Below are positions 1 through 51,800 of a stretch of 64,000 bases of DNA, in pieces (the stretch's first letter is position 1; every line of letters begins with the position of its first letter). The position numbers and the translations under genes are program-made. This stretch comes from Spirochaetota bacterium (GTDB taxonomy: Bacteria > Spirochaetota > UBA4802 > JAFGDQ01), in contig JAZDKB010000019.1 of the NCBI GenBank assembly GCA_043803405.1, positions 171,840-235,839 of the forward strand, read 5' to 3'. The notes beneath the pieces are model-generated. The model made no database searches. It saw only the letters and a program-made list of their open reading frames with translations, and was not told the DNA's origin.

Positions 1-709
1 CGAGCTTTTAAATGAACGCGGTGAATTGTATAAATTTAAAAATAATAGCGCCATTCTGGATAAAGATACATATATTAGGAACAAAAAACTCTTTAAATTC
101 GTAATTTCCAAAGCAATGCGGGAAAATTTCGGGGAATTTGTCACAACCGGAATGCTTGAAGAAATATATAAAAAGGCAGTTACTAAGAAAACCAATCTGA
201 GCCTTTACCGCAACCGGAATCTTATCATAAAAAAAACACTGGATGAGAATAAAAAAAAGATTATTGTAATTTCCAGGGATATTGAATATAATATAGATAA
301 CGCAGACTGGGAATATAAAATAGACCTGGACTTTAACGGCGAACAAAGCATATATTTAAAAGAGATAAAAAGAACGCTTTTTTTAAAGCAAGCGGATTAT
401 GGATCTTTTTTAAATGAAAAAGAATCCGGGAATAAGGTTTTTATTGCGCTTAACGGAAATGAAGCAAATATCATTATAAGAAACAGGCGCAAAGGCGATA
501 AGATAAAACTGGAAAACGGGACTAAAAAGATCAAAGAGCTGATGATTGAGTATAAGCTTGATGCAGATGTCAAGCATTCCATCCCTATTGCGGCAATCGG
601 CTCCTGTGTCGCAGCTTTTATGCCCGGTATAATTGATGTACCGCCCAACAGGGTCTCGCCCGATTTTTATGTAAAAAGCGATTCAAAAAAAATACTTGCT
701 ATACAATGA
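1..709 (+). CDS. tilS: tRNA(Ile)-lysidine synthetase, C-terminal part (5' end truncated by window edge)
   Basis: The C-terminal ~50 aa (RNRRKGDKIKLENGTKKIKELMIEYKLDADVKHSIPIAAIG...) match the conserved TilS C-terminal domain pattern (R-x-GD ... KklK ... P...R..P). The tilS->ftsH gene order is classical. The ORF is open to the window start. Confidence 0.6.
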   Translation, partial: ELLNERGELYKFKNNSAILDKDTYIRNKKLFKFVISKAMRENFGEFVTTGMLEEIYKKAVTKKTNLSLYRNRNLIIKKTLDENKKKIIVISRDIEYNIDNADWEYKIDLDFNGEQSIYLKEIKRTLFLKQADYGSFLNEKESGNKVFIALNGNEANIIIRNRRKGDKIKLENGTKKIKELMIEYKLDADVKHSIPIAAIGSCVAAFMPGIIDVPPNRVSPDFYVKSDSKKILAIQ

Positions 710-763
710 GAAAAATATCAACTGTGTTAATATTTCCCAAAATTTTCAGGAGTGAATAATTAA

Positions 764-2677
764 ATGAATAAAAATGTCAAAAATATAGCATTAGCCTTAT
801 TGATTGTCATTTTAATAATGGCAATTTATAAGATGAATGATGTAAATAAACAGAAGGTCGAATCCCTTCAATACAGCGATTTTATCAAAAAGGTTTACGA
901 TAAAAAGATAAAAGGAGTAAGTATTGTAGGCGGGACTAAAATTAAAGGCCAGTATGTAAAAGGGGATAAGGTTTTTGTATTCGAGACAGTTATACCGTAC
1001 AATGACCCCGAATTAATTAAAACTTTAATTGCCAATAATATTGAGATTGAAGGTGAAGAAGCAGACGAGAACTTTTTTGTGAAAGGGCTGTTGAGCTTTG
1101 TGCCGTGGCTTATTTTTCTCGGTTTGATATGGTTTTTGATGATGCGCCAGATTCAGGCTACGGGCACAAAGGCAATGTCGTTCGGTAAGAGCAGGGCCAA
1201 GATGAGCCCGGAGACAAAGAATAAAGTTACCTTTGCCGATGTTGCGGGCGTTGATGAAGCAAAAGAAGAGCTTAAAGAGATTATAGACTTTCTTAAGGAG
1301 CCGAAGAAATTCGTAGGCATAGGAGCAAAAATACCGAAGGGCGTTCTGCTGATGGGCTCTCCGGGTACAGGCAAAACTCTGCTTGCGCGCGCTATTGCAG
1401 GGGAAGCGGATGTGCCGTTTTTCTCCATAAGCGGATCCGACTTTGTCGAGATGTTTGTCGGTGTCGGCGCATCGCGCGTGCGAGATCTTTTTGAGCAGGG
1501 CAAAAAAAGCGCGCCATGCATCATCTTTATTGATGAGATAGACGCTGTGGGAAGATTGCGCGGAGCAGGACTCGGCGGCGGTCATGACGAAAGGGAGCAG
1601 ACGCTTAATCAGCTTCTTGTAGAGATGGACGGATTTGAAACGAATGACGGTGTAATTATTGTCGCTGCAACGAACAGGCCCGACATCCTTGACCCGGCAC
1701 TGCTGAGACCTGGCAGGTTCGACAGACAGGTTGTTGTAGATATTCCGGATGTCAGGGGACGCGAGAAAATACTGGCTGTCCATTCAAAGAAAGTACCGCT
1801 TTCCAGGGAAGTAAATCTTAAAATAATCGCACGCGGAACCCCTGGTTTTACGGGAGCGGATCTGGCTAACCTGGTAAACGAAGCGGCACTTCTTGCCGCA
1901 CGCAGAAACAAAAAGAGAGTTTCCATGCCCGAGATGGAGGACGCAAAGGATAAAGTACTCATGGGACCGGAAAGAAGGTCTGTGCTTATAACCGATGAGG
2001 AAAAAGAAATAATTGCGTTTCACGAATCCGGGCACGCTATACTCGGAAAGCTACTCCGCAGCGAAGATACGATTCATAAGGTTACTATTATTCCAAGAGG
2101 CAGGGCGCTCGGACTCACAATGAATCTCCCGAAAGAAGAAAAGCATCTTCATTCAAAGACTTACTGGATTAACCAGATCATTCAGCTTTACGGCGGGCAT
2201 ATAATCGAAAAGATTCAGTTTAATGATGTCACCACGGGGTCAAGCAATGATCTTGAGAGGGCGACTGACATAGCAAGAAGAATGGTTTGCGAATGGGGCA
2301 TGAGCGAGAACATGGGATCGCTCACATTCGGCAAGAAGAACGAACAGATTTTTTTAGGCAGGGAAATTTCCCAGCATAGGGATTACAGCGAGGCGACAGC
2401 GGAGCTTATTGATAAGGAAGTTAAATCTATACTTAGCGAATGTGAAGGTAAAGCGAGAAGTCTCATTCTGGAAAATAAAGACAAAGTCGAAAAAATCGCA
2501 AGGTATTTAATAGAACGTGAAAGCCTGAACGAGCAGGAAATTAATATGATAATGAATAATGAGGAGCTGCCGGCATTACAGCTTACGGACAAGGCAAGGG
2601 CAGCCAGGATCGAGAAAGATAAAAAGAACGATTCAAAGACAGTTGAAGATAAAAAGTTGCGTCCTGCTGAGTTATAG
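764..2677 (+). CDS. ftsH: ATP-dependent zinc metalloprotease FtsH
   Basis: 637 aa with an N-terminal TM, the AAA+ Walker A GSPGTGKT, the SRH region and the zinc-binding HESGHAI (HEXXH). An SD (aggag) precedes the ATG. Confidence 0.95.
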
Positions 2678-6347: not shown

Positions 6348-7430
6348 ATGAAAGGTATTAATACAATTACAGACAGACGCCTGTTCCAGGATATATTGGG
6401 AAAATTCTTTTTTAATAAAAGCTGTTTTTTATATGGTAAAGAAGGCGCGCTGGAAGTTAAATTTAATAGATCTTCCGATGGGCTGATCGTGATAAAGATT
6501 CCTTTTTTTACGGAAGAGCCGACAAACTGTATCGCATTTACAAGACAGGGTGCTAATATAATATTTGTTTATCTGAAGTTATGCGGGAGAAAGGAAGACA
6601 ATATTTATATTTTTAATCCGGCTAAATTCCAGATCGCGGAAGCGGACAGGAAGGATGAAAGAAAGTCTCTTATAAAAAATACAAACAGTAAATCCGTTTT
6701 ATACATAACTAATTTTATTTCGGATAATATTATTAATAAATCGCTTAGCAGCCAGGCAGAAAAGCTGGACCGTATTAAGGAAATTATTGCGTACGATCAT
6801 TTAAATGAATATGAATATCTGAAATTATTTTTTTGCAATGAAGAAATGAATGATGCAAGAATGAAATATTTTAACAATAGCAGAATACCTATATTTATCC
6901 CCAATATACATTCGGAAAATGCAAATGATGAATTACATGAGTATTATAAAAATTACATTTATAATAATGATGAATATTTGAAAATTCACAAGGAAATTGT
7001 TTCTGAAGTTGCAGTGCCGATATTGTTTGATTCAAAAATACCTTATGGTTACATACAAGTGAATAAAACCGGTCCCTTGCCTACATCAACGATTTCAGTT
7101 ATGAAAAGAGTTGCAGCATTAACGGACGATATTACAAAAAAATCTAAATTGTTTTCCGTTTCCAGCGATAAATTACTTGTCTGGGATATTTCGGAAAAAG
7201 GTGTCGGCATAGCATTTAAGAATACAAAATATATTCCTTATTACAGAAGAGACAGCTTTGTATCGCTTGATTTGCTTCTTCCAAGATATAAAAAAGCTTC
7301 AATACTTGCGGACGTAAGGCATCTGGAAATGCTGGAGAATAAATTAATTAAAGTCGGGTTCGAGATAAAAGATATGGACACAGCAAGCAGGGATAATTAT
7401 GAGAAATTTCTCGGCTCAATCAGCGCATAA
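6348..7430 (+). CDS. hypothetical protein (N-terminal NxSxxG motif could indicate a degenerate PilZ-like fold, unverified)
   Basis: 360-aa ORF in a long intergenic context with AT-rich codon usage typical of this genome. No confident domain assignment. Confidence 0.45.
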   Translation: MKGINTITDRRLFQDILGKFFFNKSCFLYGKEGALEVKFNRSSDGLIVIKIPFFTEEPTNCIAFTRQGANIIFVYLKLCGRKEDNIYIFNPAKFQIAEADRKDERKSLIKNTNSKSVLYITNFISDNIINKSLSSQAEKLDRIKEIIAYDHLNEYEYLKLFFCNEEMNDARMKYFNNSRIPIFIPNIHSENANDELHEYYKNYIYNNDEYLKIHKEIVSEVAVPILFDSKIPYGYIQVNKTGPLPTSTISVMKRVAALTDDITKKSKLFSVSSDKLLVWDISEKGVGIAFKNTKYIPYYRRDSFVSLDLLLPRYKKASILADVRHLEMLENKLIKVGFEIKDMDTASRDNYEKFLGSISA

Positions 7431-11747: not shown

Positions 11748-12055
11748 AACATTTCTCCGAAAATAATAGTTCAAATAATAATAATATTTACATGCGCCCG
11801 GTAGAATAGAACCAGCAACGCACGGATTCAAAGTTTTAGAAAACGCTTTCCATTAACAATCCATAGTGATCTGTATATATAAGTTCATAAAATCGTCAAT
11901 AAAAATTGCTATAGAATACTTCAGTTAACGCTTTTTTCTAATTGTTTTTGTTATTTCAATACTTAACAAAAATATTTAAAATGAAAATAATAAACATCTA
12001 TATAGACGAATTAACTATCATCAAATAAAAATGTATTCTATAGAACACCGGTAAA

Positions 12056-12535
12056 CTATTCAATGTTCCCTAATTCAGTAATAACCTGCGGATTAAAATA
12101 ACAATGTTTTTGTATCAATCTCTCATTAATTTCATTTTCATTTAAATCCGTTACAAATATCATCCTGCCATTATACTGATTAAAACCTGCAATTTTATAT
12201 TGATCGTAGTCCGGATCCCAAACGGTATTTTTAATTTCAAATTTAACCGGTTCCATAAATTCATAATTTGATATATGATTAAGTATCGGCGTATATTGAG
12301 AATTCGTCCGTTTTTTAAGTAAATGATCATTATTAAAAAATATTATTATGTCATTAGCTTTTGAATACTCATTTAAAAGCATAAACAGGGACTTTCTGTC
12401 TTTAACTTTATGGTCTACAACACAGGATGCATTATTTTTAAGAAAAACAGTAATATCGGAATGATGTTCCTCCGGTAATTTAACGGCTGAAATATGTGAA
12501 AAAGCTAATCCAAGCATAATGTTTTCAAAGTGCAT
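12056..12535 (-). CDS. hypothetical protein
   Basis: 159-aa ORF with no recognisable motif. Confidence 0.4.
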   Translation of the reverse strand: MHFENIMLGLAFSHISAVKLPEEHHSDITVFLKNNASCVVDHKVKDRKSLFMLLNEYSKANDIIIFFNNDHLLKKRTNSQYTPILNHISNYEFMEPVKFEIKNTVWDPDYDQYKIAGFNQYNGRMIFVTDLNENEINERLIQKHCYFNPQVITELGNIE

Positions 12536-12667: not shown

Positions 12668-12740
12668 CGCGCCCGGCAGGAGTCGAACCTGCGACGCACG
12701 GATTCGAAGTCCGACGCTCTATCCACTGAGCTACGGGCGC
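12668..12740 (-). tRNA. tRNA-Arg (anticodon UCG)
   Basis: Hand-folded cloverleaf on the minus strand: acceptor GCGCCCG/CGGGCGC, D-stem GCTC/GAGC, anticodon stem-loop with U33 and UCG at 34-36, a 5-nt variable loop, T-arm GCAGG-TTCGACT-CCTGC and discriminator G. CCA is not encoded. Confidence 0.85.
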
Positions 12741-12800: not shown

Positions 12801-12895
12801 CCCCGTGCGCAGCCTCCCTGTGGGTCTCTCTGCTTCGTAAAGAGGGGGAAAATACTGTTTTCTCCCCTTCTCTTTTTAAAGAGAAGGGGGCGGGG
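12801..12895. repeat. GC-rich hairpin repeat (family 2) copy 1: ccccgtgcgcagcctccctgtggg ... ccccttctcttt-ttaa-agagaaggggg
   Basis: It resembles the reverse complement of 21495-21575 (shared ccccgtgc..ag.c.tccct.tggg and cccttctc-loop-gagaagg modules). It lies immediately beside tRNA-Arg. Confidence 0.3.
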
Positions 12896-12947
12896 GATGA
12901 GTTAAACAAGGTTTCTTTTAGCGAGTGGCATCCCTGGGGGAGTCCGG

Positions 12948-16959: not shown

Positions 16960-17235
16960 ATGCAAAGATTAAAGCTTGACCAAGATATCCGACCTCTTTC
17001 AGAAGTCAGGACGGAAATTGCCAGCTGTATAAAGCAAGTTCATGATACAAGAAGACCATTGATTATTACTCAACATGGGAAAGGTGTAGCTGTTTTATTA
17101 GATGTTCAGGAATATGAAGTAATACAGGAAAAACTTGAATTGTTATCTGATGTACAAAAATCTTTATCGCAAATCGAAAATGGTAACGGGATAGAACATA
17201 AAAAAGCAAAAGCCATACTTATAAAACGAGTTTAG
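16960..17235 (+). CDS. type II antitoxin, Phd/YefM family
   Basis: 91 aa with the typical Phd/YefM N-terminus (RPLSEVRTEIASCIKQVHDTRRPLIITQHGKGVAVLLDVQEYE). It sits directly upstream of the toxin gene. Confidence 0.8.
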   Translation: MQRLKLDQDIRPLSEVRTEIASCIKQVHDTRRPLIITQHGKGVAVLLDVQEYEVIQEKLELLSDVQKSLSQIENGNGIEHKKAKAILIKRV

Positions 17236-17237
17236 CA

Positions 17238-17534
17238 ATGAAAATTGTATGGTCTCCACTTGCCCTCGAAAGAGCTTCTGAAATAATTGATTATATTGCA
17301 CAAGATAAACCATCCGCAGCAATAAATTGGATAGATATTGTCTTTTCAAAAGTTGAATTACTTGCATTATCTCCAGAGATGGGTAGGGTTGTGCCAGAGA
17401 TAGGGAATATTCAATTTAGAGAAGTGATTTATGGTAATTATCGAATTATTTATCGGTTTTATAAAAAACAAATATTTATTCTTACTATCCGTCATGGAAA
17501 GCAAATATTACCAATTGATGAAATTTCATCATAA
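17238..17534 (+). CDS. type II toxin, ParE/RelE family
   Basis: 98 aa. The start codon is 3 bp after the antitoxin stop. The ParE-like C-terminus (YRIIYRFYKKQIFILTIRHGKQ) is present. Confidence 0.8.
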   Translation: MKIVWSPLALERASEIIDYIAQDKPSAAINWIDIVFSKVELLALSPEMGRVVPEIGNIQFREVIYGNYRIIYRFYKKQIFILTIRHGKQILPIDEISS

Positions 17535-18912: not shown

Positions 18913-19155
18913 ATGGCAGCTTCAAAAATAGCAATAACAATTGATAATAATATTTTAAAGCGCCTGGATCTCCTCGTTAAATCAAAGTTATACCCGAATC
19001 GAAGCAAAGCAATTCAGGATGCAGTTGCTGAAAAAGTTAAAAAACTTGAAAAGAACCGTCTCGCTTTGGAATGTGAGAAACTTGATCCTGAATTTGAGCA
19101 ATCAGTCGCAGAAGAAGGATTTTCGGCGGATATCGAAGAATGGCCAAAATATTAA
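18913..19155 (+). CDS. type II antitoxin, MazE/RHH-like (CopG-type ribbon-helix-helix)
   Basis: 80 aa. The N-terminal KIAITIDNNILKRLDLLV is typical of an RHH beta-strand/helix. It overlaps the downstream toxin gene by 16 bp. Confidence 0.7.
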   Translation: MAASKIAITIDNNILKRLDLLVKSKLYPNRSKAIQDAVAEKVKKLEKNRLALECEKLDPEFEQSVAEEGFSADIEEWPKY

Positions 19156-19475
19156 GAGGTGAAATATACTGGGCTGATTTAAATCCGGTAATCGGACATG
19201 AACAAGGTGGATTGCGTCCGGTTTTGATAATAAGTCAGGATGTTTTCAATGAAAAATCGGGTACAGTCATAGTTATTGCTTTAACCAGCCAGCCTCAAAA
19301 AGCCGGTTATCCATTAACATATCAACTAAACAATTTAAAACTGCCGAAGACTTCCTGGGTAAAAATAAGTCAAATCCGAACGCTTTCAATTCAAAGAATA
19401 GGGAAAAAAATCTCTAAAGTATCAGATAACGAGTTAAATCAAATTATTGATGGTTTGAACGAAATAATTAGTTAA
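19140..19475 (+). CDS. type II toxin, MazF/PemK family endoribonuclease
   Basis: 111 aa with the N-terminus GEIYWADLNPVIGHEQGGLRPVLIISQDVFN, characteristic of the PemK/MazF fold. Confidence 0.85.
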   Translation: MAKILRGEIYWADLNPVIGHEQGGLRPVLIISQDVFNEKSGTVIVIALTSQPQKAGYPLTYQLNNLKLPKTSWVKISQIRTLSIQRIGKKISKVSDNELNQIIDGLNEIIS

Positions 19476-19493: not shown

Positions 19494-21098
19494 ATGATAA
19501 TCAAATCTGGAATTTCAGCAGTAACAGTTTATAACGACAGGGCAGAGGTTACAAGAACTGCGTCGGAAAATCTTGATAAGGGCGAGCATGTGCTCATTTT
19601 CGATTTTCTTCCTGAATACATTGAACCGAACAGCGTGCAGGTTAGGGGCAGTGGGAACGCCATGCTTAAGGACGTTAAATTCAAGACAGTGTATTACGAA
19701 GAGCTTCCGGACCCGAACGCAAAGCTCCTGTTCGATGAGAAGCTGAAACTGGCAGAGGCGATCTCCGAGCTGGATGATAAGATCGCGCACGCTGAAAAAG
19801 AGAAGGGCTTTATTGAGGATATAGCAAAGCGCCTTACTGTTTCCACAGGCAAATCCGAAGCATTCGAATTTAATCCCGATAAATGGATTAAGATGGTGGA
19901 ATTCTACAGGATTAAAAACGACGAGCTCGATAAAGAGATACGCGCTGCAAACAAAGAGAAAAATATCTTAAAAAATAAAATGGAAAAAATTCTGAAAGAT
20001 ATTGCGGCGGTTGGGAGTACCAGGGAGAAAAGCAAAAACCAGGTTGAGGCGTCTGTTCTGATGAACGGGCAGGGCGCTTTGATACTTGATCTGATATATA
20101 TTGTGTACGGGCCTTCGTGGGCCCCTGTTTATGACCTGCGCGTTTCAACAGACAGCAAGAGTATGAATATATCCTACCATGCTTTAATACAGCAGAACAC
20201 GCAGGAAGACTGGAACGATGTAGACTTAAAGCTTTCTACGGCGCGGCCGAACATAAGCGGCAATCAGCCGGAGCTTACTCCATGGCATATAAGCGTTTAC
20301 CAGCCGGATTTATTCAGGAACGCGCCTTCTGCTTCTTTAGCAAAGGAAAAGAAAGCTGCCGCGCCTGCAAGGCAGATGTTTGATGAAGAGGCGTCCAGGA
20401 TTGCGGACATGGATTCGGTAGTAGGCGGGATGCCTGCTATTGCTCCTGCAGAAGCAACAGTGGAGACGGGCGCAACATCGGTGCTGTTTGCGGTCGGGGG
20501 AAAAAGCACGATCGGGAGCGGAAGCGACCAGCACAAGGTCACGATTTTAAGAAAGGATTTCTCCGCATATTTCCGCTACTCAAGCGTGCCGAAGCTCGCC
20601 CAGTTCGCATATTTAAAGGCAAAAGTAAAAAACGAGACCGAGTATCCGCTGCTCCCGGGCGAGAGCAACATCTTCCTTGATAATAATTTTGTCGCGAATT
20701 CGTATATGAAGCTGGCTGCTCCGGGTGAGGAGTTCTGGACTTTTCTGGGCGTTGATGAAGGGATGAAGATTGAGTACAAGTTTATCAATAAGTACGAAGC
20801 TACAGAAGGCGTGTTCAGCAAAACAAGCAAACTGATGTACGAATACCAGATCATCATTAAGAACAATAAAAAATCCGAGGCAGATGTTGTTGTCTGGGAT
20901 CAGATACCGATTTCCGGCAATGAAGAGATAAAGGTCACGCTTATCGAACCAGAATACAAAAAGGATTCGGACTCGCTCAAGATAAACGAGAACAAATATC
21001 TGGAATGGCTCTTTAAACCAAAGCCGGCGCAGGAGATCAAAGTGCAGTTTAAGTTCTCGGTCGAGTATCCGAAGAACATAGTCGTTTCGGGGCTGTAA
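19494..21098 (+). CDS. DUF4140/DUF4139 family protein (MuiA-like)
   Basis: 534 aa. The N-terminus (ISAVTVYNDRAEVTRTA...NSVQVRGSG) and overall architecture match the conserved DUF4140-DUF4139 hypothetical family, with a coiled-coil middle region. Confidence 0.55.
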   Translation: MIIKSGISAVTVYNDRAEVTRTASENLDKGEHVLIFDFLPEYIEPNSVQVRGSGNAMLKDVKFKTVYYEELPDPNAKLLFDEKLKLAEAISELDDKIAHAEKEKGFIEDIAKRLTVSTGKSEAFEFNPDKWIKMVEFYRIKNDELDKEIRAANKEKNILKNKMEKILKDIAAVGSTREKSKNQVEASVLMNGQGALILDLIYIVYGPSWAPVYDLRVSTDSKSMNISYHALIQQNTQEDWNDVDLKLSTARPNISGNQPELTPWHISVYQPDLFRNAPSASLAKEKKAAAPARQMFDEEASRIADMDSVVGGMPAIAPAEATVETGATSVLFAVGGKSTIGSGSDQHKVTILRKDFSAYFRYSSVPKLAQFAYLKAKVKNETEYPLLPGESNIFLDNNFVANSYMKLAAPGEEFWTFLGVDEGMKIEYKFINKYEATEGVFSKTSKLMYEYQIIIKNNKKSEADVVVWDQIPISGNEEIKVTLIEPEYKKDSDSLKINENKYLEWLFKPKPAQEIKVQFKFSVEYPKNIVVSGL

Positions 21099-21189
21099 AA
21101 AATACGGATGTTTCATATACATAGCAAGGAATACAGAGAATATTTAATACCATCATCGCCCTGTCCCCAGGGCTGCCTCACGCTAAATT

Positions 21190-21426
21190 TTTTAGTTGTA
21201 AATTGGATATGCTCCCGGCCCCCTAACCCCCTGAAGGGGGCATAATTGGAAAGGTGTTGAATTGACAATATTTATTTTTAGTGGTTAAAAGGTTTAAAGC
21301 AACTAATAAAGAGTAAAATATCAGATAATAAAATACATCTGATTAAAGATATGAGATATAATATAAATATTTTCCCGAATATGCCCCCTTCAGAGGGTTA
21401 GGGGGCTGAAAGGGCAATGGCTATGG
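21190..21426. mobile_element. MITE-like non-autonomous repeat element, copy A (about 237 bp, GC-rich about 30-bp TIRs, AT-rich core)
   Basis: About 93% identical to 48970-49206. Left TIR gctcccggccccctaaccccctgaagggggcat. Right TIR atgcccccttcagagggttagggggctgaaag, which is the reverse complement with 1-2 mismatches. The core contains an atcagat-N10-atctgat hairpin. Intergenic location. Confidence 0.6.
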
Positions 21427-21494
21427 AATGCAAGCATGGTTGTCGAAAGCAGATAATAATAGCAGATATTTAGCATAAGGCAGCCCTGCCTAAC

Positions 21495-21575
21495 CCTGCC
21501 TTCTCTCCTCGAGAGAAGGGGGAACTCTACCTCTACTTTTGGAAGTCCCAAAGGGATGCTTTGCACGGGGTTAGG
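21495..21575. repeat. GC-rich hairpin repeat (family 2) copy 2, inverted orientation (ccttctctcctcgagagaagg ... catccctttggg ... gcacgggg)
   Basis: The reverse complement aligns module-by-module with 12801-12895. It lies directly adjacent to MITE-like copy A. Confidence 0.3.
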
Positions 21576-21598
21576 AGGTTGAGGTTTTACATTATATT

Positions 21599-22258
21599 AT
21601 GAAAGAACTGGAAAAAATATTGCAGAGATCGTTGCCAGGCGCCAAGATAGCAGAGTCGTCTTTTCCGCTTTGCAGGGAATTAAAGCTTTATCTGCTCGAT
21701 CCGTCCGGCATGGAGAGAGGTTTTTCTTCCGGAGAAGCACAGAATATTTTTGCAGATACTCCGTTCTGGGCGTTCTGCTGGGCAAGCGGTTACGCTCTGG
21801 CTTCGTATATTTTACAGAATCCTGGGATGGTACGGGGACGACGCGTTGTCGACTTCGGTGCAGGGTCAGGTGTTGTTGCCGTCGCAGCAGCAATGGCCGG
21901 GGCGGACGAAGCAGTTGCATGCGATCTTGATTCCAATGCTCTTAAGGCTGCAATACTTAACGCGGAACTGAACAACGTAAGCATTACTGTGAGCGAATCT
22001 ATTGGCAAAAAAGCAAAGAGATACGACCTGCTTACTGCTGCGGATGTTTTATATAATACAAACAATTTATTTCTGCTCGATATGTTCCTTGAGCATGCTC
22101 AGGAAGTTTTACTTGCAGATTCCCGCGTTAAAGACATTGAACATCCTTTCTATAATAAGATTTACGAATGCAGGACATCTACTCTGCCAAGGCTGGGTAA
22201 TTCCGATGATGAGATCGTAGGGATATATGGAACACGTCCTATTTTTGTAAATAGTTAG
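21599..22258 (+). CDS. class I SAM-dependent methyltransferase (PrmA/protein-methyltransferase-like)
   Basis: SAM-binding motif I (VVDFGAGSGVVAVAAAMAG) and post-I acidic residue (ACDLD). 219 aa. Confidence 0.75.
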   Translation: MKELEKILQRSLPGAKIAESSFPLCRELKLYLLDPSGMERGFSSGEAQNIFADTPFWAFCWASGYALASYILQNPGMVRGRRVVDFGAGSGVVAVAAAMAGADEAVACDLDSNALKAAILNAELNNVSITVSESIGKKAKRYDLLTAADVLYNTNNLFLLDMFLEHAQEVLLADSRVKDIEHPFYNKIYECRTSTLPRLGNSDDEIVGIYGTRPIFVNS

Positions 22259-47614: not shown

Positions 47615-48892
47615 ATGAAATTCATAGTAAAGCCATCAAGAATATCAGGAGAAGTAAATGTTCCTGGCTCTAAATCCCATACTATCAGGGCTTTAGTTCT
47701 GGCTTTGCTTGCAGACGGCGAATCCGTCATAAGGGAGCCGCTTGAGTCCGCAGATACGCACTCGTGCTTCAACATGGTAAAGAAGTTCGGCGCCGAAATT
47801 TATACGGAGAAAAATGTGTGGCGGGTTAAAGGCAGGGCAGGGGAGATTGCTGTTCCTGATGATATTGTAGACGTGGGAAACTCCGGCACTTCGCTGTACA
47901 TAGGGCTTGGGATTGCTTCTCTTGCTGACGGCTACACTGTGTTCACAGGAGACAGCCAGATAAGGAACAGGCCTGTGAATGCTCTTTTAACATCCATACC
48001 GGAACTTGGCGGCATGGCTTGTTCCACCAGGAACAACAACAAACCGCCTGTAGTTGTAAAGGGCAGGATTAAAGGCGGCAAAACAAGCGTGGAAGCAGTA
48101 ACATCACAGTATCTTTCATCTCTTCTTATAGCATGCCCGCTCGCTTCCGGCAATACAACTATCCATGTGCCGTTATTGAATGAAGTGCCATATATTGATA
48201 TGACATTAAAATGGATGGATAAACTCGGTATTAAATATCATAATAATAATTACAGGACATTCGAAATAAAAGGAAACCAGAAATATAATAATTTTGACGA
48301 ACATATCCCAGCCGATTTTTCCTCTGCCGCTTTTTTTCTTGTAGCAGCAGCGATTACAGGCACTGAACTTACATTGCATGGTCTTGACTTTAACGATACG
48401 CAGGGCGACAAGGAGGTAGTTAATATTTTAAAATCAATGGGAGCAGAAACGGAAATTGGTAAAAGCAGCATAACAATAAAAGGAAATATGCTTAAAGGCG
48501 GAACATTCGATCTGAATGCGATCCCAGATTCTCTTCCTTCGCTTGCTGTGGCAGGCTGCTTTGCACAAGGCGAGACAAGGCTGGTTAATGTGGCACAGGC
48601 AAGAGTGAAAGAAACAGACAGGATAAAGGTGATGTGCAGTGAACTAAAAAAAATGGGAGCCGATATCGAAGAGCTGCCCGACGGGCTAGTTATCAAAAAA
48701 AGCTCGCTGAAAGGAGCGCAGGTGAACGGCCACAATGATCACAGGGTGGTAATGTCCCTTGCTGTTGCGGGACTCATGGCGGACGGCCAGACTGAAATAG
48801 ATACTGCCGAATCTGCTGCTGTAACTTTTCCAGAATTTTTTTATTTAATGAAATCCGCAGGTGCTGACATTAAAATGATTGGGGACGAGTAG
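47615..48892 (+). CDS. aroA: 3-phosphoshikimate 1-carboxyvinyltransferase (EPSP synthase)
   Basis: 425 aa with the N-terminus PGSKSHTIRALVLALLADGES and the two-domain EPT fold length. Confidence 0.9.
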   Translation: MKFIVKPSRISGEVNVPGSKSHTIRALVLALLADGESVIREPLESADTHSCFNMVKKFGAEIYTEKNVWRVKGRAGEIAVPDDIVDVGNSGTSLYIGLGIASLADGYTVFTGDSQIRNRPVNALLTSIPELGGMACSTRNNNKPPVVVKGRIKGGKTSVEAVTSQYLSSLLIACPLASGNTTIHVPLLNEVPYIDMTLKWMDKLGIKYHNNNYRTFEIKGNQKYNNFDEHIPADFSSAAFFLVAAAITGTELTLHGLDFNDTQGDKEVVNILKSMGAETEIGKSSITIKGNMLKGGTFDLNAIPDSLPSLAVAGCFAQGETRLVNVAQARVKETDRIKVMCSELKKMGADIEELPDGLVIKKSSLKGAQVNGHNDHRVVMSLAVAGLMADGQTEIDTAESAAVTFPEFFYLMKSAGADIKMIGDE

Positions 48893-48969
48893 AAGTACAT
48901 CTAAGAGCGCATCTCAAACCTATATTCAGTTATTTTTTTTATCGGGGCAGGGATGTTTCATGCTGATTA

Positions 48970-49206
48970 TTTTAGTTGTAACACGGGTATGCTCCCAGCC
49001 CCCTAACCCCCTAAAGGGGGCATAATTGGAAAGGTGTTGAATTGACAATATTTATTTTTAGCGGTTAAAAGGTTTGAAGCAACGAATAAAGAGTAAAATA
49101 TCAGATAATATAATACATCTGATTAAAGATATAAGATATAATATGAATATTTTCCCGAATGTGCCCCCTCCAGGGGGTTAGGGGGCTGAAAGAGCAATGG
49201 CAATGT
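48970..49206. mobile_element. MITE-like non-autonomous repeat element, copy B
   Basis: About 93% identical to 21190-21426 over its full length, in the same orientation, and intergenic between aroA and the heptosyltransferase gene. TIRs gctcccagccccctaaccccctaaagggggcat / gtgccccctccagggggttagggggctgaaag. Confidence 0.6.
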
Positions 49207-49312
49207 AATATAAGTTCGATCGCCGAATGCAAATAAAATAGATGAACAGCCGGTACAGATAAACAATATAACTCTGCTGCGCCAATTTAACTTTAGATTC
49301 AACTTTATTTTA

Positions 49313-50422
49313 ATGCAAAACAATATAATAAAAAAAAAGCGTCTGCGGGTTTTATTAATAAGATTCAGCTCCATAGGTGACATCATACTTACAACTCCGG
49401 TCATAAGAGCTTTAAAAGAAAGTTATCCGGATTTGATACTGGATTATCTGACATTAAAAGAATATGCCATACTGCTTAAAGACAATCCTTATATAGATAA
49501 TCTTATCACAACTGACAGAAAGGGAACAGCAGGCGCTGTTAAAACAGCCTTGCAATTGAGGGGAAATAATTACGATTTTATTTTCGATCTGCACAGGAGT
49601 ACAAGGAGCCTTATCTTCAGGGCAATTTTAAAAGCAGATTATAAATATAAATTTAAAAAGAATTATATTAAACGATTCCTTCTGACAGCTTTTAAGCTGC
49701 GCTTTTACAGAAAGCCCTATTCAGTAGTGAACAGATATTTTAATACTCTTAAGAGATTGAATCTCCCGAACGAACATAAAAGTGAAATATGGTTAAACAC
49801 TGACGACGTCAAAAAAGCAATTCTAAAAATAAATAAAATTGCCGGTACAAAATTTTCCTTTATTGCCGCAGCAGGCGGGGCAGCTCCGGTCAGCAGGAAA
49901 CTTTTTCGCGAAAAAGAACGCAGAATGATTTCCATCATGCCGTTCGCGAAATGGAAAACAAAGGAATGGGGGGATGATAAGTTTATAGGGCTTGGGCTAA
50001 GATTAAAGAAAGCCGGGGTCATTCTATGCATTCTCGGCGGAACCGAAGATGCGGAAAGGGCGGACAAAATTGCACACGCGATCGGGAAGGGCGCGCTGTC
50101 CCTTGCGGGCAAACTCACGCTCGCTGAAACTGCAACAGCACTCGCTGTATCAGATTGCCTTGTAACTAACGACACAGGCGTTATGCATATAGGCGGTGCT
50201 GTTTCCATTCCTGTTGTTGCAGTGTTCGGTTCTACAGCAGAAGAGCTTGGTTTCTTTCCATATAAGTCCGAAGGCGAAGTTGTGCAAATCGATCTGAAAT
50301 GCCGGCCATGTACGGCCAAAGGTTTGCCCGCATGTCCAAAAAAGCATTTTAAATGCATGAATGATATTTCTGTCGATATGGTTTACTCAACTGTGAGAAA
50401 ATGTATAGGGACGTTGCTATAA
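49313..50422 (+). CDS. glycosyltransferase family 9 (LPS heptosyltransferase-like)
   Basis: N-terminus RVLLIRFSSIGDIILTTPVIRALK and C-terminus VTNDTGVMHIGGAVSIPVVAVFGST are typical of GT9 heptosyltransferases (WaaC/WaaF-like). The specific paralog is not assignable. Confidence 0.8.
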   Translation: MQNNIIKKKRLRVLLIRFSSIGDIILTTPVIRALKESYPDLILDYLTLKEYAILLKDNPYIDNLITTDRKGTAGAVKTALQLRGNNYDFIFDLHRSTRSLIFRAILKADYKYKFKKNYIKRFLLTAFKLRFYRKPYSVVNRYFNTLKRLNLPNEHKSEIWLNTDDVKKAILKINKIAGTKFSFIAAAGGAAPVSRKLFREKERRMISIMPFAKWKTKEWGDDKFIGLGLRLKKAGVILCILGGTEDAERADKIAHAIGKGALSLAGKLTLAETATALAVSDCLVTNDTGVMHIGGAVSIPVVAVFGSTAEELGFFPYKSEGEVVQIDLKCRPCTAKGLPACPKKHFKCMNDISVDMVYSTVRKCIGTLL

Positions 50423-50525
50423 AACAAAGGGATAATCTTTCAAATCAAAGGGAAAATGCTGCTAAAACAAACAAAAATGAATAATAATAATAAATTATGT
50501 ATTTTTTTGATCGCGGAGACAAATA

Positions 50526-51800
50526 ATGCTTTATGAATCTGTAATATTTATTGGATCAGTTATTGCGAGATTTATAGCTTTATTCGATAAAAAAATGGCC
50601 AGGTTTTTTTCGTTAAGGGAGAAAGAAACCGAAAGAATAGCGGATTATTTCAGCAGTTATCAAAATCAAAAAAATAAAGTAATATGGTTCCATGCTTCGT
50701 CTGCAGGCGAACTGGAGCAGGCAAAGCCGCTGATCGAACATTTTAAACGCACAATTAAGAAAGCACAGATTATCGCAAGTTTCTTTTCCCCTTCCGGATA
50801 TGATGCAGGGCTTAAATATAAACAGATTGATTTTTGTTTTAATCTGCCATTGGACTATACGAAAAATGCTGAAGCTTTACTGAACTGCATAAATCCGGAA
50901 ATCATTATATTTTCCAAATACGATGTCTGGACAAACCTGACTGTGGAAGCCAGGAGGCGCAATGTGAAGCTCGCGTTGATAAGCGCCACTTTGCCGGAAA
51001 AATCGCTAAGGCATAAGTTCCCGTTGAGTAGTTTTTTCAGTAAAGCCTACAGCGCTTTAGACAGAATATACGCTATATCCAAAGCAGACGCAGACAGGTT
51101 TTCAAAGATTGCTAAAAATAAACATAGCATTAAAATATCAGGGGATACCAGGTTCGACAGGATAAAGACCGTAATTGATAATGCGCAGGTAAATACAAAA
51201 AGCATAATAAAAAAACAGAAAGATATTGATTACCTGGTGGCAGGCAGTACTTACGAAGTATGCGAGAAAAAACTGATCGGCGTTTTAAAACAGTTAAACG
51301 AGAATTATAAAAATATCAGATTAATCCTTGTGCCGCACGAGATCGATGCCGGAAATATCCTGAGACTGAATAAACTGGTCAGCTCCTATGGCTATAATCC
51401 GGTAATGTATAGCAAAGCTGTTCATCCGGTGTTACTTAATGACAACGATGTTTTAATTATTGACGCTTTCGGAGTACTGGCTTTTCTTTACAGGGAGGCG
51501 GATATTGTATTTGTAGGCGGTTCGTATAAAGGCAGCGTCCACAGCGTTCTTGAGCCTGCTATATTCGGAAAAACAATTTTAACCGGGCCTTACATACAAA
51601 ACTCCTATGAAGCTTTGGAGTTGAACCTGGCCGGCGGGCTTCTGGTATGTAAAGATCAGGATGAATTATTTAAGCAGACATCTGATTTAATTCGTGATAA
51701 AAGTTACAGGAATAAAATAGCGCAAAAAGCAAAAATATTTTTTGAAAAAAATACTGGTGCAACTAATATTATACTAAAGGATATCAGAAAATTATTATAA
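50526..51800 (+). CDS. waaA: 3-deoxy-D-manno-octulosonic acid (Kdo) transferase
   Basis: 424 aa. N-terminal membrane anchor, IWFHASSAGELEQAKPLI and the GT30 fold length. Confidence 0.85.
   Translation: MLYESVIFIGSVIARFIALFDKKMARFFSLREKETERIADYFSSYQNQKNKVIWFHASSAGELEQAKPLIEHFKRTIKKAQIIASFFSPSGYDAGLKYKQIDFCFNLPLDYTKNAEALLNCINPEIIIFSKYDVWTNLTVEARRRNVKLALISATLPEKSLRHKFPLSSFFSKAYSALDRIYAISKADADRFSKIAKNKHSIKISGDTRFDRIKTVIDNAQVNTKSIIKKQKDIDYLVAGSTYEVCEKKLIGVLKQLNENYKNIRLILVPHEIDAGNILRLNKLVSSYGYNPVMYSKAVHPVLLNDNDVLIIDAFGVLAFLYREADIVFVGGSYKGSVHSVLEPAIFGKTILTGPYIQNSYEALELNLAGGLLVCKDQDELFKQTSDLIRDKSYRNKIAQKAKIFFEKNTGATNIILKDIRKLL

Follow-up and report, generated by a model that had tools for sequence, protein, structure and literature searches.

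A non-coding, hairpin-ended repeat in a Spirochaetota genome shares its ends with dispersed elements and DUF559 nuclease cassettes of Bacteroidota

We describe here a small non-autonomous hairpin repeat, present as two dispersed copies about 92% identical in a MAG labelled Spirochaetota bacterium (NCBI), for which relatives have an empty syntenic site and whose ends are common to dispersed elements in Bacteroidota. In the latter phylum, the same ends are also shared with DUF559 nuclease cassettes. On balance, we favour the view that the two copies are ORF-less members, mobilised in trans, of an undescribed family of hairpin-ended elements, probably acquired across phyla; what speaks against it is that two copies have been seen, in a 64-kb window (the whole stretch of DNA analysed) of a 424-kb contig. 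The repeat is MITE-like and REPIN-like in its action and fits the definition of neither: with no target-site duplication (TSD), repeats that appear subterminal, no matching IS found and no GTAG tag, it is neither a textbook MITE nor a canonical REPIN.

Results

Two copies of a 289-nt unit with inverted, self-folding arms

The two copies, A and B, lie 27.8 kb apart in the same orientation (Table 1). An initial annotation had described them as a unit of 237 bp with about 93% identity, and the block is indeed there: it aligns without gaps, with 219 of 237 positions identical (92.4%; 18 differing positions). The size of the unit had to be revised to about 290 bp, as the homology recovered both by repeat search and by BLAST extends over 289 nt (87.9% identity, E about 1e-102). 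Directly beyond these limits the identity between the copies drops to 25-29%, which is random, and local alignment does no better than with shuffled sequences; this collapse sets the shared unit at ~289 nt. Inside it, conservation is arranged in tiers: 95.5% in the core (133 nt, 22.6% GC), 88-89% in the GC-rich arms and edges, and 67-68% in the outer shoulders (21168-21189 and 21427-21456). The AT-rich core (23% GC) and the lack of a transposase ORF had both been predicted correctly. Neither copy contains an ORF, all six frames being closed by stops throughout, and the NCBI annotation places no gene between MFH0975997 and MFH0975998; a small protein-coding gene was rejected because of the stops in every frame. 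Neither repeat search nor BLAST revealed a third copy of the core within the 64-kb window, in which the composite arm motif described below is confined to the two element spacers.

Table 1. Coordinates of the repeat copies, of neighbouring repeats and of DUF559 cassettes (positions in the window, or in the respective locus for L024, L026 and L034)
Feature	Position	Size or identity	Description
Copy A, full shared unit	21168..21456	289 nt	Repeat search, BLAST, identity tiers
Copy A, high-identity block	21190..21426	92.4% to copy B	
Copy A, left arm	21210..21243		TGCTC foot, then GCCCCC-TAA-CCCCC-TGAA-GGGGG-CA; strict motif 21218-21242
Copy A, AT-rich core	21246..21378		ORF-less
Copy A, internal hairpin	21320..21343		ATCAGAT-N10-ATCTGAT
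Copy A, right arm	21381..21416		ATG-CCCCC-TTCA-GAGGG-TTA-GGGGGC-TGAAAG-GGCA; strict motif 21382-21406, single stem defect GAGGG
Copy B, full shared unit	48948..49236		Same orientation as copy A
Copy B, high-identity block	48970..49206		
Copy B, left arm	48990..49023		Strict motif 48998-49022, GCCCCCTAACCCCCTAAAGGGGGCA
Copy B, AT-rich core	49026..49158		
Copy B, internal hairpin	49100..49123		
Copy B, right arm	49161..49196		Strict motif 49162-49186
Outer inverted repeat, around copy A alone	21168-21188 / 21468-21488	21 nt	2 matches, 0 expected
Mini-palindrome adjoining copy A	21489..21579	~90 bp	Related ends CCTAACCC ... GGGTTAGGAGG
L024 DUF559 cassette	701-1129		Between two polysaccharide-synthesis genes
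L026 DUF559 cassette	701-1075		23 nt after and 1 nt before two 2-oxoacid:ferredoxin oxidoreductase subunit genes (POR operon)
L034 DUF559 cassette	701-1102		Splits metH between pterin-binding and B12-binding domains; left end alone kept

The inverted arms (21218-21252 and 21372-21406 in copy A) are 35 nt long and 89% complementary. They had been taken for terminal inverted repeats; the inversion stands, but a terminal position finds no support, since the sequence common to both copies continues for 28-50 nt outside the left arm and for 20-50 nt outside the right arm. The repeats thus appear subterminal, and the boundaries of the transposed unit are uncertain. No direct repeat, and hence no TSD, is present at 21168/21456, at 21190/21426 or at the equivalent positions of copy B. 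The stem is lengthened by five more pairs across a small bulge, TGCTC pairing with GGGCA in copy A and with GAGCA in copy B.

From the outside in, each end consists of a C-run, TAA, another C-run, a loop of 4 nt and a G-run, and the two ends are inverted relative to each other. Each arm is able to fold alone, its one G5 run having a choice of two C5 runs to pair with: single arms self-fold with -7.5 to -8.6 kcal/mol, and as DNA the left arm of copy A forms by itself a 7-bp hairpin (-7.8 kcal/mol). The RNA fold z-scores of the two copies are -5.8 and -6.6, with 0 of 200 shuffles as stable. The internal hairpin was found in both copies as annotated, the sole difference between them falling in its loop, and the GC-rich tract that had been singled out as unusual is indeed so: with at most 2 mismatches, the window contains 5 occurrences of GGGGTTAGGGGGC vs 0.5 expected, all of them in the two element spacers. 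A G-quadruplex was rejected by inspection, there being fewer than four G-runs per strand in copy B.

Unrelated neighbours and an empty site in relatives

The genes initially named as neighbours were recovered, and they provide two unrelated intergenic contexts. Copy A has on one side a DUF4139/DUF4140 gene (19494-21098), itself preceded by the gene of a MazF toxin, and on the other the gene of a PrmA-like methyltransferase (21599-22258); copy B separates the EPSP synthase gene aroA (47615-48892) from a GT9 heptosyltransferase gene (49313-50422), after which comes a Kdo-transferase gene. The flanking genes of each copy are co-directional, and the next start codon is 173 nt downstream of copy A vs 107 nt downstream of copy B. 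The neighbourhood of copy A is rich in accessory genes; two type II toxin-antitoxin pairs are found just upstream (16960-17534 and 18913-19475), one formed by Phd/YefM with ParE and the other by a small ORF with MazF/PemK.

The Bacteroidetes-like setting implicit in the initial annotation did not hold, the host being a Spirochaetota MAG, to whose 424,217-bp contig GroEL, aroA, the two neighbours of copy A and the next two genes after copy B were all assigned. Its closest aroA homologues (83-65% identity) come from Spirochaetes MAGs wherever the source gives a name. In two of these relatives, L035 and L036, with aroA 83% and 79% identical, the orthologous GT9 gene (369 aa) follows aroA directly, and the spacers of 32 and 81 bp, compared with 420 bp in the window, carry neither element nor motif. 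Two others (L020 and L021, 79-80%) miss the GT9 and Kdo-transferase genes and likewise the motif; altogether, the composite motif is absent from ~43 kb of the four relatives' loci. Having no counterpart in the L035 and L036 spacers, the element is not a conserved feature of the aroA-GT9 junction, and, judging from these sequences, copy B looks like a lineage-specific insertion rather than a conserved regulatory region; loss from both relatives at such a distance (about 80% amino-acid identity) is formally conceivable. The empty-site comparison that had been proposed gave an element-free junction in the two closest relatives found, the opposite of the syntenic conservation across species that had been put forward as the refuting scenario.

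As a separate observation on this locus, the GT9 and Kdo-transferase genes occupy 49313-51800 in the window, between aroA and rsmE; GT9 also follows aroA in L035 and L036, and L020 and L021 have rsmE immediately after aroA. Related spirochaete MAGs differ here by an indel of two LPS-core genes.

For copy A, an independently assembled Logan contig of the same organism, L001 (run SRR27925880), bears an identical methyltransferase gene, and its position 1 corresponds to position 21402 of the window, inside the right arm. Such a start fits, as weak evidence, an assembly break induced by a repeat.

Several of these features would suit a duplicated functional RNA or cis-regulatory module (a small RNA, a stabilising or insulating hairpin, a terminator) under selection downstream of two genes: both copies have the same orientation and sit between co-directional genes, the core (95.5%) is better conserved than the arms (88-89%), the fold is strong, and the lone difference in the inner hairpin falls in its loop. 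However, the small-RNA gene and the terminator module that had been suggested for the repeat found no backing. No Rfam family was recovered from the elements, where a relaxed scan gave sub-threshold plant miRNA and generic long-hairpin models on both strands, tRNA being the one Rfam family in the window; no sigma-70-like promoter or Bacteroidota-type TAnnTTTG site lies inside either element; and neither spacer contains an intrinsic terminator (GC-rich hairpin plus T-run). A riboswitch or known small RNA was rejected for want of an Rfam match, as was a promoter module for want of either type of site. Moreover, the aroA-GT9 junction of relatives does without the element, the flanking genes are unrelated in function, the distances to the downstream start codons are unequal (173 vs 107 nt), and covariation is not demonstrable from two copies. 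We consider a functional module of this kind improbable.

The arm motif recurs among Bacteroidota

The four arms of the window share a 25-nt motif, GCCCCCTAACCC-N-CT-NN-AGGGGGCA, and all four fit the search pattern used for it, GCCCCCTAACCCNCTNNAGGGGGCA. In a collection of 185,579 species-representative genomes, the strict motif gave matches at 18 loci, which belong to 11 genomes, each from Bacteroidota: Bacteroidaceae, Muribaculaceae, two other Bacteroidales MAGs, Paludibacter, Porphyromonas levii, Pedobacter, Mucilaginibacter, Longitalea and a Saprospiraceae MAG. By our own arithmetic, ~0.07 matches would be expected by chance (22 fixed bases, 596 Gb). The motif is identical in four Bacteroidota classes and in one spirochaete; the pattern being strict, variants in other phyla would escape it. 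Two metagenome contigs also carry the motif, and there was no match in the IMG/VR viral contigs.

Within the Bacteroidota loci the motif recurs up to four times per 8 kb, the typical layout being left-right inverted pairs, gCCCCCtaaCCCCCtaaaGGGGGcat ... CCCCCtttaGGGGGttGGGGGGctgag, whose outer CTGA is also present in the window's GGGGGCTGAAAG. These pairs, for which Rfam holds no family, surround AT-rich cores of ~40-400 nt that are unrelated to one another; across taxa the stems are conserved and their 4-nt loops vary (TAAA, TCAA, TGAA, TCCA). Alignment between the window elements and those of Bacteroidota is limited to the ends and ~15 nt beside them, the cores not being homologous across taxa, and a deeper kinship of the window core to the Bacteroidota cores was rejected for this reason. 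A parallel to the window element is offered by a Paludibacter jiangxiensis MAG (L018): two ORF-less pairs, at 2025-2300 and 6560-6650, have the same ends and the right half of an AT-rich core in common, and form a multi-copy, ORF-less, MITE-like family. The window element is accordingly built on a general pattern, with conserved hairpin ends around a variable core. In Longitalea luteola (L003, 330-375 and 890-930) the motif was seen as the loop of a larger GC hairpin, atgCCCCCCggCCCCat [motif] tGGGGccGGGGGGcat, repeated 557 bp apart along with ~90 nt of common upstream sequence.

The 89 ORFs found within 3 kb of the motif are housekeeping genes, no family occurring more than twice, and this scatter is a dispersal of the kind known for REP and MITE elements. 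No transposase recurs near the motif in the 20 Bacteroidota loci.

With this distribution in hand, two alternatives can be weighed. The first is that the unit is a doublet of REP palindromes of the REPIN/BIME type, with a single-copy RAYT (a Y1 HUH transposase), encoded elsewhere in the genome, responsible for its amplification. The arms are, like REPs, imperfect palindromes of 25-35 nt, each self-folding, and they are inverted about a spacer without a TSD; in one Bacteroidaceae and one Muribaculaceae MAG, GTA precedes the motif, which with the motif's first base gives GTAG. The window arms, however, have no GTAG/CGTC (GT[AG]G) tag at the foot of their hairpins, the preceding tetranucleotides being CCCG, CCCA and TCAG; their 139-nt spacer is long for a REPIN, judged by published sizes; and no Y1 transposase was found among the motif-neighbour ORFs visible or the window ORFs scanned. 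Further, REP sequences have been described as species-specific (PMC6006769), yet this motif does not differ between four Bacteroidota classes and a spirochaete. We regard a REPIN doublet as unlikely. A RAYT-type Y1 transposase is the main alternative to DUF559 as the enzyme, given that RAYT subclasses specific to Bacteroidetes and showing 'atypical secondary structures' have been documented (PMC6006769).

The second alternative is a single event between two spacers, either segmental duplication or gene conversion, requiring neither element-encoded nor trans-acting mobility. That two copies are seen, 27.8 kb apart and in the same orientation, and that neither has a TSD would be expected from it; against it, the flanks are unrelated past sharp limits, the 25-nt motif that the arms match is scattered through many other genomes, and the break of the Logan contig hints at more copies or variants. 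We find it the hardest of the alternatives to sustain, and very improbable.

DUF559 nuclease cassettes have ends of the same kind

Coding elements with matching ends were encountered in Bacteroidota. In Porphyromonas levii (L013, NZ_KB904203.1, 250-690, minus strand), a motif pair surrounds a DUF559 ORF (PF04480, E = 2e-33), and the cassette lies in frame within a DegT/DnrJ/EryC1 aminotransferase gene. With the cassette, the DegT protein covers positions 36-114 of the Pfam profile; once the cassette is removed in silico, one continuous PF01041 match is restored (positions 4-114, E = 1.7e-32). The left arm of copy B, together with the T that follows it, is identical in 26 of 26 positions to the left end of this cassette.

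Used as a query, the same DUF559 protein retrieved 923 homologues at E <= 1e-10, and the best 120 of these 923 are informative in three ways: (i) 39 have ...NAPL as their C-terminus, and the one locus of this sort that was read (L024) has the final codons, with the stop, within the right-end hairpin, CCCC-TTTAG-GGGG; (ii) 10 have N-terminal extensions, such as MPPSPLKGS or KPPYPPKGG, matching the translated GC-rich left end, a match shown at the DNA level for P0169 (L024) and P0149 (L034); and (iii) several are fused to host proteins, namely GDP-mannose dehydratase, Polysacc_synt_C, DegT and MetH. Three loci (L024, L026 and L034) were picked by protein alone, and in the DNA of all three, ends of the same kind as the motif are found at the boundaries of the DUF559 ORF, in L034 on one side (Table 1); the L026 cassette was seen in 91 blocks of the collection searched. 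Unlike host genes have near-identical junction peptides: DegT carries APQPPKGGVLHSAD, and a GDP-mannose dehydratase of Duncaniella carries APRPPKGGVLKSAD. Close DUF559 relatives reside in different host genes (DegT, GDP-mannose dehydratase, the POR operon, metH and Polysacc_synt), which shows that the cassettes move.

Among solved structures, the nearest to DUF559 is 3HRL, an uncharacterised endonuclease-like protein. We found no description in the literature of DUF559 as a hairpin-ended or mobile cassette, no paper dealing with the motif in a relevant context, and no DUF559 in viral contigs. In the window, tblastn gave no similarity to DUF559, and a decayed DUF559 ORF in the core was rejected, given this result and a core of just 133 nt.

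Other repeats and wider searches

The 21-nt inverted repeat that encloses copy A, whose left arm coincides with the left edge of the shared unit, reads CAGGG(C/A)TGCC....GCTAAA(T/A), with a box CAGGGCTGCC...GCTAAAT. The left edge of copy B carries a diverged copy of it, and there is a solo relative beside a tRNA gene (12917-12939, minus strand). The mini-palindrome that adjoins copy A includes a CCTTCTCTC/GAGAGAAGG hairpin at 21499-21519. Small GC-rich palindromes occur both there and at 12840-12895, and CCCCTTCTCT / AGAGAAGGGG hairpins followed by an extra G-run reproduce the layout of the right-end motif. The host genome seems to hold several related hairpin repeats.

A different pair was noted near the same tRNA gene (12668-12740, minus strand): a 31-nt direct repeat, 84% identical and 876 bp apart (11804-11834 vs 12680-12710), the second member being the 3' half of the tRNA gene. 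The two repeats bracket an ORF without a Pfam match (12056-12535, minus strand) and may have been left by a small element that integrated at the tRNA.

Searches with the core, the arm-core junction or the whole unit returned no matches: a 29-mer from the core in the 185,579 species genomes, a 22-mer spanning the arm-core junction in the JGI metagenomes, the whole unit against plasmids and phages in distant mode, and a composite of element-encoded peptides, aimed at spurious ORFs on other copies, against 5.8 billion proteins. Exact look-ups of the aroA, DUF4139 and GT9 proteins of the window likewise yielded no record. A Pfam scan of the 41 window ORFs gave no transposase, DUF559, RAYT or other nuclease candidate. 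No cognate IS with matching ends, for which a search had been proposed, was found in the window, and the one type of coding element found with such ends is the DUF559 cassette, in Bacteroidota only.

Discussion

The description of the repeat as MITE-like thus survives in part: it is dispersed, non-coding and absent from the syntenic junction of relatives, but has no TSD, no clearly terminal repeats and, in the window, no matching IS or transposase. We return to a family of hairpin-ended elements, mobilised in trans, as the favoured reading. Under it, the element would have entered the spirochaete lineage horizontally from Bacteroidota; with the strict pattern, the exact motif is otherwise found in Bacteroidota alone, and acquisition across phyla is the simplest account of this. 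Copying would have been performed in trans by a structure-specific nuclease or a transposase, which probably recognises the ends in folded form. The leading candidate is the Vsr-like PD-(D/E)XK enzyme represented by DUF559, as this is the sole coding capacity found between such ends. Insertion would proceed without TSD, as for HUH/Y1 enzymes or for a nuclease followed by repair. A preferred target may also exist: the 67% shoulders and the outer 21-nt inverted repeat of copy A suggest, from two copies, insertion into an older palindromic repeat, and the outer repeat is possibly such a target. Once inserted, the element would add a ~35-bp stem to read-through transcripts, whose effect on neighbouring genes is likely a side effect and not the reason for its existence.

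What connects DUF559 to the window copies, in whose genome no such gene is known, is the kind of end that they have in common with elements from another phylum, and DUF559 might be cargo, or a nuclease merely favouring such hairpins, instead of the mobilising enzyme. A bolder version, to which we give only tentative credence, is that the window copies represent the ORF-less form of an undescribed mobile class with nuclease-only autonomous members, which has spread to Spirochaetota. The autonomous members would be cassettes of ~420 bp, with an ORF that extends from one GC hairpin end and reaches into the opposite one; those of Bacteroidota would insert in frame in genes or tightly between the genes of operons; and a structure-specific nuclease, rather than a DDE or HUH transposase, would drive both the cassettes and their MITE-like derivatives.

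These findings matter at several levels. For the host genome, the element marks sites of recent rearrangement or insertion and places a ~35-bp stem between co-directional genes. It is unusual for a 25-nt end motif to be identical in a spirochaete and in four classes of Bacteroidota, REP-type repeats being normally species-specific. Through the motif, hundreds of small ORFs annotated as 'endonuclease domain-containing' (DUF559) are also tied to a hairpin-ended unit with a definition. Should DUF559 be the enzyme of mobilisation, a role would fall to a widespread domain of unknown function, and a new, nuclease-driven route for the spread of small repeats and of in-frame gene insertions would come to light. 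In practical terms, the motif would be a marker for assembly breaks and for spurious ORF calls in Bacteroidota genomes.

Comparison with known systems

The Neisseria Correia/NEMIS elements, the pneumococcal RUP and the enterobacterial ERIC/RU elements are examples of bacterial MITEs. As they do, the window element has fewer than 300 bp (289 nt, within the MITE range of about 50-600 bp), is non-coding, AT-rich in its body, bounded by inverted repeats, intergenic and dispersed, and would form a long hairpin if transcribed. It differs from MITEs in having no TSD, in carrying its inverted repeats 20-50 nt inside the shared unit, in that the search for a matching-ended IS with a DDE transposase gave none, and in ends that are self-folding GC hairpins.

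IS200/IS605 elements and their ORF-less PATE derivatives have subterminal hairpins and generate no TSD; their left and right hairpins differ, and they have no long inverted repeat. The window element shares with them the subterminal hairpins and the absence of TSD, and departs from them in that its two ends are inverted relative to each other over ~35 nt.

Free-standing homing-endonuclease cassettes include Vsr-like/EDxHD enzymes such as I-Bth0305I. The Bacteroidota relatives of the window element likewise carry a small ORF for a PD-(D/E)XK Vsr-like nuclease (DUF559), inside or between conserved host genes and with the reading frame intact. In contrast to homing cassettes, the DUF559 units have no intron or intein context and bear hairpin inverted repeats at both ends; ORF-less derivatives occur at many sites unrelated to one another, a distribution that homing by itself leaves unexplained, and the window copies have no ORF.

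IS1397 and ISKpn1 are full IS3-family elements that insert into the loops of REPs. Copy A lies in a comparable way between the arms of the outer 21-nt palindrome, and both copies have 67% shoulders; here, unlike with these IS, the inserted unit is non-coding, and the proposed target is a hypothesis drawn from two copies.

With the REP/BIME/REPIN elements and their RAYTs (PMC6006769, PMC3116915), the window copies share GC-rich imperfect palindromes in inverted pairs (the arms falling within the 20-40 nt of REP palindromes and their inverted doublets), an extragenic location, the absence of TSD and, presumably, handling as folded single-stranded DNA. They differ from these in lacking GTAG/CGTC, in a longer spacer with conserved content of its own, in a motif conserved across classes and phyla, and in that no link to a RAYT was seen.

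Finally, compared with the DUF559 hairpin-ended cassette as defined here, the window copies have no PF04480 ORF between their ends and are at most its ORF-less derivatives; both of them carry its composite ends, with a C-run, 2-3 nt, a second C-run, a 3-4-nt loop and a G-run on the left and the inverse on the right.
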